Under the pieces are notes generated by a model, which saw nothing but the letters and a program-made list of their open reading frames with translations, was not told the DNA's origin and did not search any database. Below, one piece after another: positions 41,323 to 41,997 of a DNA stretch of 64,000 bases; position 1 is the stretch's first letter; the number at the start of each line of letters is the position of its first letter. Origin of the DNA: Promethearchaeota archaeon. GTDB taxonomy: Archaea; Asgardarchaeota; Lokiarchaeia; Sigyniarchaeales; SOKP01. The position numbers and the translations under genes were made by a program. The stretch is from assembly GCA_030599585.1 (NCBI GenBank), contig JAUVNS010000009.1, forward strand, positions 64,001 through 128,000, in the 5' to 3' direction.

Positions 41323-41997
41323 TTATTCTATAATCGATCTGTAAAAGTTATACGCTTCTTTAGCAACTTCTTGGGTAAATCCGATATAGAAATGGTCTGC
41401 TCCCTTGATTATTCTATACTGTTTCGGTTCTAAGTAGAAATTATAATGGTTTTCAAAATTTTCATAAATCGCCAAATTATCTCGATTTCCTTGAATAAAC
41501 AATTTTGGTTTTTTACTTTGAGATAGCTCTTTATATTTTAAACCCATAAAGTCCCAAGGAAAAGAAATAGCACAATATCCAATTATTTTTTCAGAATGAC
41601 TGATAGCAGAGCATCCTATAGCCGCACCGTAGGAATACCCGCATATAAATACTCTATCAAAATGTAAATCCCGCGTTAAATGGTCAATACATGCCTTAAC
41701 GTCGGATAATTCGCCTTTACCAATTGTAGGATTCCCCGTTGATTTACCAACCCCTCTAAAATTGAAGCGCATACATGAGATTTCCTTTTTAACGAATGAA
41801 TTAAAAACACCGGATACAACATTATTATGCATGTCCCCTCCATACTTTCCCTTTCTTGGGGTTTAAACCCTAAGAAATTGAGGATGTGGATGACACATTA
41901 ATGTAACGCAACTATGTGTTTCTTTTTCTATCTGAAAAACTTCAGCTTCAAGTTTTACTTCATTATTAAAAATAAACAATTTTTCAACGCTATGCAT
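41323..41997 (-). CDS. Alpha/beta hydrolase (KANL3/Atu1826-like) split by a 33-nt intron (exons 41997-41879 and 41845-41323, 213 aa)
   Basis: MHSVEK...LMCHPHPQ^YGGDMHNNVV, RFNFRGVGKS, GYSYG, QGNRD, ADHF. Confidence 0.9.
41846..41878 (-). other. Putative canonical bulge-helix-bulge mRNA intron
   Basis: ATTTCTTAGGGTTTAAACCCCAAGAAAGGGAAA; in-frame TAA 41865-41863; central helix UCCU/GGGA; bulges CAA and AAG; exon helix UCCACA/UAUGGA; intron stem UUUCUU-GGG/CCC-AAGAAA. Confidence 0.88.

Follow-up and report, generated by a model that had tools for sequence, protein, structure and literature searches.

How does a gene whose reading frame is broken inside its most conserved motif yield an intact protein? 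This question is raised by a hydrolase gene on the minus strand (41997-41323) of a 64,000-nucleotide (nt) window, the whole stretch analysed here, which covers positions 64,001 to 128,000 of contig JAUVNS010000009.1 from a Promethearchaeota archaeon of the Lokiarchaeia (assembly GCA_030599585.1). There, a 44-amino-acid (aa) open reading frame (ORF) ends at a TAA (41865-41863) and is followed in the same frame by a 169-aa ORF starting at ATG 41832. Re-reading the strand confirmed what a preliminary description of this DNA had claimed: a 33-nt insert at 41878-41846 holds the in-frame TAA and limits the unspliced ORF to 44 aa, and deleting it leaves a single, complete 213-aa ORF, which starts at ATG 41997, stops at 41323 and reads HPHPQYGGDM across the junction. 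We propose, with a probability of about 0.92, that the insert is an intron of the bulge-helix-bulge (BHB) type in coding sequence and that the mRNA is spliced by EndA and RtcB, as in the archaeal gene cbf5. The gene is divided as follows:

41879 to 41997, minus strand: exon 1, 119 nt, starting at Met1 and ending after the second base of the Gln40 codon, encoding strands beta1-beta3 and the HPHP motif; under purifying selection, as judged by substitution ratios.
41846 to 41878, minus strand: putative BHB intron, a 33-nt hairpin with the TAA (41865-41863) in its loop; absent from 13 close orthologue copies.
41323 to 41845, minus strand: exon 2, with Ser111 (GYSYG), Asp162 and His191; present in databases as the truncated 169-aa ORF from ATG 41832.

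The insert lies at codon 40, between an invariant HPHP and an invariant Gly42-Gly43 in the orthologue alignment, and the protein family is Pfam PF20408, so that the earlier identification of an alpha/beta hydrolase gene with a split HPHPxxGG motif holds. We take the interrupted HPHP/Gly-Gly loop to be the oxyanion hole of the alpha/beta hydrolase fold; Ser111, Asp162 and His191, all in exon 2, are the likely catalytic triad. A structure model of an intron-less orthologue (predicted local distance difference test score, pLDDT, 94.9) places strands 5-10, 15-21 and 30-35 within the part encoded by exon 1, and this orthologue matches 3TRD with E = 1e-29, with template-modelling scores (TM-scores) of 0.82-0.87 against 3TRD, 2I3D and 2FUK. 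The restored 213-aa product is a lid-less alpha/beta serine hydrolase, CBU/Atu1826/XC6422-like. It belongs to the same family as 3TRD (Coxiella), Atu1826 (2I3D) and XC6422 (2FUK), whose genes are bacterial and uninterrupted, whereas the archaeal gene is split by the insert. The hydrolase is single-copy in the host genome (G000), whose closest relatives are Promethearchaeota (Lokiarchaeia) assemblies, in agreement with the Asgard host named previously.

Around the insert, the transcript can form the following elements:

41890-41885 with 41844-41839, minus strand: exon-exon helix, 5 of 6 pairs; 93% of cells paired in the alleles, with two pairs changed on both sides.
41881 to 41884, minus strand: central helix, 5' strand UCCU, exonic, in the codons of His38-Pro39.
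41848 to 41851, minus strand: central helix, 3' strand GGGA, intronic; 4 of 4 pairs in 24 of 24 inserts.
41878 to 41880, minus strand: 5' bulge CA^A, with the predicted 5' cut between 41879 and 41878.
41845 to 41847, minus strand: 3' bulge AA^G, with the predicted 3' cut between 41846 and 41845.
41852 to 41877, minus strand: intron helix and hairpin, with 6 base pairs, a 1x1 mismatch, 4 base pairs and a 4-nt loop.

This is a canonical BHB, in which a 4-bp central helix stands between two 3-nt bulges on opposite strands, with exon and intron helices on either side. Each part of the fold given in the preliminary description was recovered (an exon helix of 5/6 pairs, the UCCU/GGGA central helix, bulges CAA and AAG, and an intron hairpin), the intron helix being 6 bp long. 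EndA cleaves after the second base of each 3-nt bulge (PMC2738675). Applied here, this rule gives CAT CCT CAG TAT GGA (HPQYG), as had been predicted, and restores HPHPQYGGDM; the cuts also match the insert borders set by the empty alleles, borders that can slide by one base with the peptide unchanged. Because sliding both cuts one base either way still gives Gln-Tyr, the restored peptide agrees with the EndA rule but cannot fix the cut sites. The pairing exceeds chance: inserts shuffled at the same composition combined a 4/4 central helix and a 5/5 intron helix at this site with a frequency of 6.5e-5, and the region folds with z = -2.8.

Comparison with orthologues showed that the motif is conserved. 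We found an insert at exactly the same site in 24 of 37 close orthologue copies (30, 31 or 33 nt; 21 distinct sequences), while the other 13 are empty and supply the intron-less orthologues that had been expected. A pattern search placed the insert in 25 of the 42 genomes of the genus; outside the genus, all 11 parsed copies are empty and four unparsed copies are open frames of 212-226 aa. An extra pattern match in one genome (G035) and one viral match lie in intact ORFs or do not have the hairpin, and are not further cases. One genome (G009; L091, C72) carries two diverged, intron-less hydrolase copies. All 24 inserts have a central helix of 4/4 pairs, keep the first exon pair and have at least 4/5 pairs in the intron helix. 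Across the 12 distinct 33-nt alleles, 92% of cells pair, as compared with 25-73% in slid registers, and four pairs are changed on both sides, which are the compensatory changes that the BHB fold had been expected to show. The intron helix of these alleles is paired in 88% of cells, again with changes on both sides. The third base of the Pro39 codon, which is synonymous and pairs in the central helix, is T in 24/24 intron-bearing copies and in 8/13 empty ones.

The enzymes required are encoded by the same genome. G000 has two EndA paralogues: one (C24) has the catalytic-motif residues Tyr, His and Lys, and the other (C35) does not have the His. We take these three residues to have their catalytic roles here, and the paralogue without His is presumably the structural subunit. 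The genes for ligation are the following:

G000 C32:55250-58970 (L033, L118): RtcB (490 aa) and archease, adjacent genes, a few kb before the window.

The host thus encodes both the EndA endonuclease and the ligase (RtcB with archease), and a two-subunit EndA type has been reported in Asgard archaea (PMC5829648). At the level of sequence, the insert displays the features of a cbf5-like BHB intron: the BHB and its conservation, the ORF regained by deletion, purifying selection on both exons and the enzyme genes can all be read from the DNA. From these we infer transcription, cleavage, ligation and translation of the hydrolase message. The pre-mRNA would fold into the BHB motif, a heterotetrameric EndA would cut each 3-nt bulge behind its second base, and the exons would be joined by RtcB with archease to give the 213-aa lid-less alpha/beta serine hydrolase; unspliced transcripts would terminate after 44 codons.

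Could the ribosome instead read through the stop or hop over the hairpin, without any cutting of RNA? That the window insert is a multiple of three and forms a hairpin speaks for such recoding, as does a database protein (P0204) that reads through the insert. However, all 24 inserts break the frame, four of them by being 31 nt long and shifting it, and all 17 distinct in-frame inserts contain a stop, whereas shuffling the middle of the insert gives a stop only 45% of the time. The loop codon varies by lineage, being TAA, TGA or TAG, and one allele that lost its loop stop has a TGA three codons later. Across lineages that are not independent, this pattern suggests that unspliced messages may be kept terminating by selection. 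As the frame is broken in every insert, by varied stops or a frameshift, these data argue against read-through: orthologues carry the three stops at different codons and in two frames, with no single conserved stop or slippery site. Moreover, read-through would add 11 residues to the invariant HPHPxxGG loop, P0204 (224 aa; L112, Logan SRR18920792) is a gene-calling artefact in which TGA was read as Trp, and hopping leaves unexplained a conserved BHB whose predicted cuts fall at the homology-defined borders. We consider recoding very unlikely.

A small element might alternatively have broken a dispensable gene and left a pseudogene, given that no essential role of the gene is known and that the unspliced product is only 44 aa. 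The exons do not look like this. Median ratios of nonsynonymous to synonymous substitution (dN/dS) are 0.36 for exon 1 and 0.18 for exon 2 in intron-bearing genes versus 0.33 and 0.25 in empty ones, with triad motifs intact; by this measure both exons are under purifying selection, like insert-free genes. The 19 reconstructed intron-bearing genes, whose protein identity goes as low as about 60%, showed no additional stop or frameshift. The exon decay that had been named as a refuting sign was not found, and to judge by their sequences the intron-bearing hydrolase genes are not decaying pseudogenes; removal of the insert is required for the intact protein that is under selection. The same kind of insert also occurs in ribosomal protein genes of the host genome, and a dead insertion is accordingly a most improbable account.

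Alternatively, exon 2 could be translated from its own ATG into a 169-aa protein that works alone or assembles with the 44-aa upstream peptide. The ATG lies five codons past the insert, exon 2 holds the entire triad, and databases call exon 2 as a separate ORF. Such a product, however, would be without three strands of the central sheet and without the invariant Gly42-Gly43; the ATG is the conserved Met45 of the family and is CTG in one intron-bearing genome, and the YGG codons between insert and ATG remain conserved. A split gene of this kind is hardly credible. Among the 120 best database matches, 49 do not have the N-terminal motif; if the inserts are spliced, gene callers truncate the hydrolase proteins. 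One close exon-2 homologue, P0127 (MCK5725173.1), whose cluster shares 93% identity with the window protein, comes from a 1.1-kb contig under the label Gammaproteobacteria and is probably mis-binned. Neither the ribozyme core of a self-splicing group I or group II intron nor the internal ORF of an endonuclease-encoding intron is present in the 33-nt insert, which has no Rfam match near the gathering score. An assembly or sequencing artefact, suggested by a metagenome assembly with 8.9% contamination, is refuted by independent assemblies: of 42 such genomes in the genus, 25 carry the insert, with diverged sequences.

Several observations weigh against a spliced BHB intron. The best ViennaRNA fold is in a slipped register and is not a strict BHB; relative to the full ensemble, the strict BHB ensemble is higher by 2.4 kcal/mol for this allele and by 2.4-5.5 kcal/mol over the alleles. 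The central helix is invariant across inserts and lends no covariation support, and the orthologue genomes are related, so that counts are not independent and the pairing figures are inflated. Among the 120 top protein matches and six metagenome matches, there was no insert-free sequence near-identical to an intron-bearing allele: the best full-length database protein is 77% identical to a spliced product, and the six metagenome matches to the junction pattern are other organisms or distant empty alleles. Finally, the hydrolase gene is probably not essential.

The distribution of the insert among orthologues is patchy, requiring four gains or losses on the protein tree and three on the exon 2 tree, and exon 2 rejects a grouping of the intron-bearing copies in one clade (approximately unbiased test, p = 2.6e-50, on a quick tree). 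Two genomes with a 30-nt insert (G012 and G021) differ from their empty sisters (G018 and G029) by 26 and 31 differences in the 60 nt before the insert, a tract picked after inspection, as compared with only 8-9% elsewhere in the gene. Because the empty sisters are closer in this tract to the empty outgroup (63-83%) than the intron-bearing pair is (43-70%), the intron of G012 and G021 most likely arrived together with a foreign stretch of 5' exon about 60 nt long. The window gene shows, in its 3' third (about 41323-41520, minus strand), 55-61% identity with its closest relatives (L002, L005) and 75-91% with others (L007, L013, L034); judging by these identities, this part of exon 2 is a recombination mosaic unrelated to the intron, and recombination is therefore common at this gene. 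The probable history of the intron is a gain inside a single genus, with later loss or sideways transfer through recombination.

The surroundings of the gene offered no free-standing endonuclease gene of the kind that collaborative homing would use. In the flanks of 43 loci we found no adjacent nuclease gene, nor any ORF of at least 70 aa between the divergent nadC and the hydrolase, although a nuclease might act from elsewhere. Besides nadC, the neighbours in the window are a NikR-like regulator, a 132-aa ORF and a metallophosphoesterase; downstream neighbours at the 43 loci are housekeeping genes, one being ADH by Pfam. A gene for a 345-aa zinc-binding dehydrogenase directly after the hydrolase is present or absent independently of the intron (L011, L015, L018-L021, L023, L024, L026, L030, L034). 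Neither a tRNA intron resembling the insert nor a second copy of it was found in G000, for which tRNA recovery is incomplete. ARAGORN called only 21 tRNAs in this genome, many of them mis-called, which is consistent with heavily interrupted tRNA genes; its calls include a tRNA-Pyl (CTA) candidate at G000 C24:283335-283438.

Is the hydrolase the only such gene in its host? Similar inserts were found at the following loci:

G000 C49:50207-50237 and C12:53171-53201 (L081, L079), plus strand: radA paralogues, each with a 31-nt frameshifting BHB insert in the GGN-IVAH motif.
G000 C28 near 32750 (L083), minus strand: uL11, 28-nt frameshifting insert with a central helix of 4/4 pairs; a single locus found.
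G000 C11:38148-38119 (L085), minus strand: uS3, 30-nt insert with two in-frame stops, intron helix 6/6 and central helix 3/4; a single locus found.
Window 5782-5753, minus strand: elf1, 30-nt insert with an in-frame TAA that splits the first CxxC, in a relaxed BHB with a central helix of 3/4 pairs; removal restores CPNCGEK.

G000 has at least six frame-breaking BHB-type inserts. The two radA inserts show compensatory changes between them, while the insert is missing from a third radA copy (C20) with 92-94% identity near the junction; the presence of three copies may be partly due to contamination. Across the genus, the radA insert occurs in seven copies in five genomes and about 19 copies are without it. 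Because genes for ribosomal proteins (uL11 and uS3) are broken, splicing in vivo is hard to avoid. A genome-wide intrinsic scan for BHB-interrupted ORFs gave no excess over a mirror-geometry null (3238 versus 3287; 1089 versus 1168) and therefore cannot count introns; real cases among its candidates were picked out only by homology support, in that paralogues across the predicted junctions led to the two radA inserts. No frame-breaking intron was seen in the cbf5 gene of G000, where a frame of 355 aa is open around the DKCLD domain.

The known cbf5 pre-mRNA intron of Desulfurococcales and Sulfolobales is 16-44 nt long (Watanabe 2002; Yoshinari 2006; Yokobori 2009, PMC2738675). Other archaeal BHB introns in coding sequence were predicted in 2006 and are unconfirmed (PMC2738675), and a paper of 2020 gives cbf5 as the sole further example of an archaeal mRNA carrying a BHB intron (PMC7714728). 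In a full-text search that left most subscription papers outside its scope, cbf5 was the only confirmed archaeal coding-sequence case and no report of an Asgard coding gene was found, which agrees with the earlier statement that BHB introns of mRNA are best known from crenarchaeal cbf5. Like the hydrolase insert (30-33 nt), the cbf5 intron is short, lies within a conserved functional motif of the coding sequence, has a BHB at its borders cut after the second bulge base, and is patchily present in hosts with a two-subunit EndA. The two differ in gene and in the Asgard host; the BHB is canonical in the hydrolase, whereas most cbf5 motifs are described as unconventional; cbf5 is accounted for by one gain plus losses and has one site per genome, whereas the hydrolase intron shows signs of lateral gain in a genome with at least six sites. 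Splicing of cbf5 was shown by cDNA and in vitro, while that of the hydrolase intron is predicted from sequence. The intron of HVO_1309 in Haloferax volcanii likewise belongs to an mRNA whose BHB is processed by the splicing endonuclease, but it lies in the 5' untranslated leader and breaks no frame, unlike the hydrolase insert (Schwarz 2020, PMC7714728). Non-canonical tRNA introns of Asgard archaea share the motif, the enzyme and the repeated gains with the hydrolase intron, in a preprint of October 2026 that deals with tRNA genes only and whose text does not contain the word mRNA (bioRxiv 10.64898/2026.10.13.758758). What is new relative to cbf5 is the host lineage, the gene, the number of sites per genome and the apparent lateral gain. 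In eukaryotes, the coding mRNAs HAC1 and XBP1 are cut by a protein endonuclease and joined by a tRNA ligase, as proposed for the hydrolase; there, however, Ire1 acts on stem-loops under regulation by stress, whereas the hydrolase insert has a BHB and no sign of regulation.

We lean towards the broader view that BHB mini-introns of about 30 nt are a spreading class of mRNA intron in this genus of Lokiarchaeia, placed in conserved motifs of many genes including those of ribosomal proteins, passing from one species to another together with a short tract of 5' exon, and retaining a stop by selection so that unspliced messages abort. EndA and RtcB would then serve as a general system of mRNA splicing in prokaryotes closely related to eukaryotes. 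The hydrolase locus is a good test case, since its motif is short and canonical, empty alleles occur naturally and a gain event can be seen. If the inserts are spliced, gene callers truncate the affected proteins, and mRNA is routinely cut and rejoined by tRNA machinery in the archaea most closely related to eukaryotes. Such routine splicing, if true, is relevant to the cellular tolerance of introns and to the way in which RtcB-ligated mRNA splicing arose.
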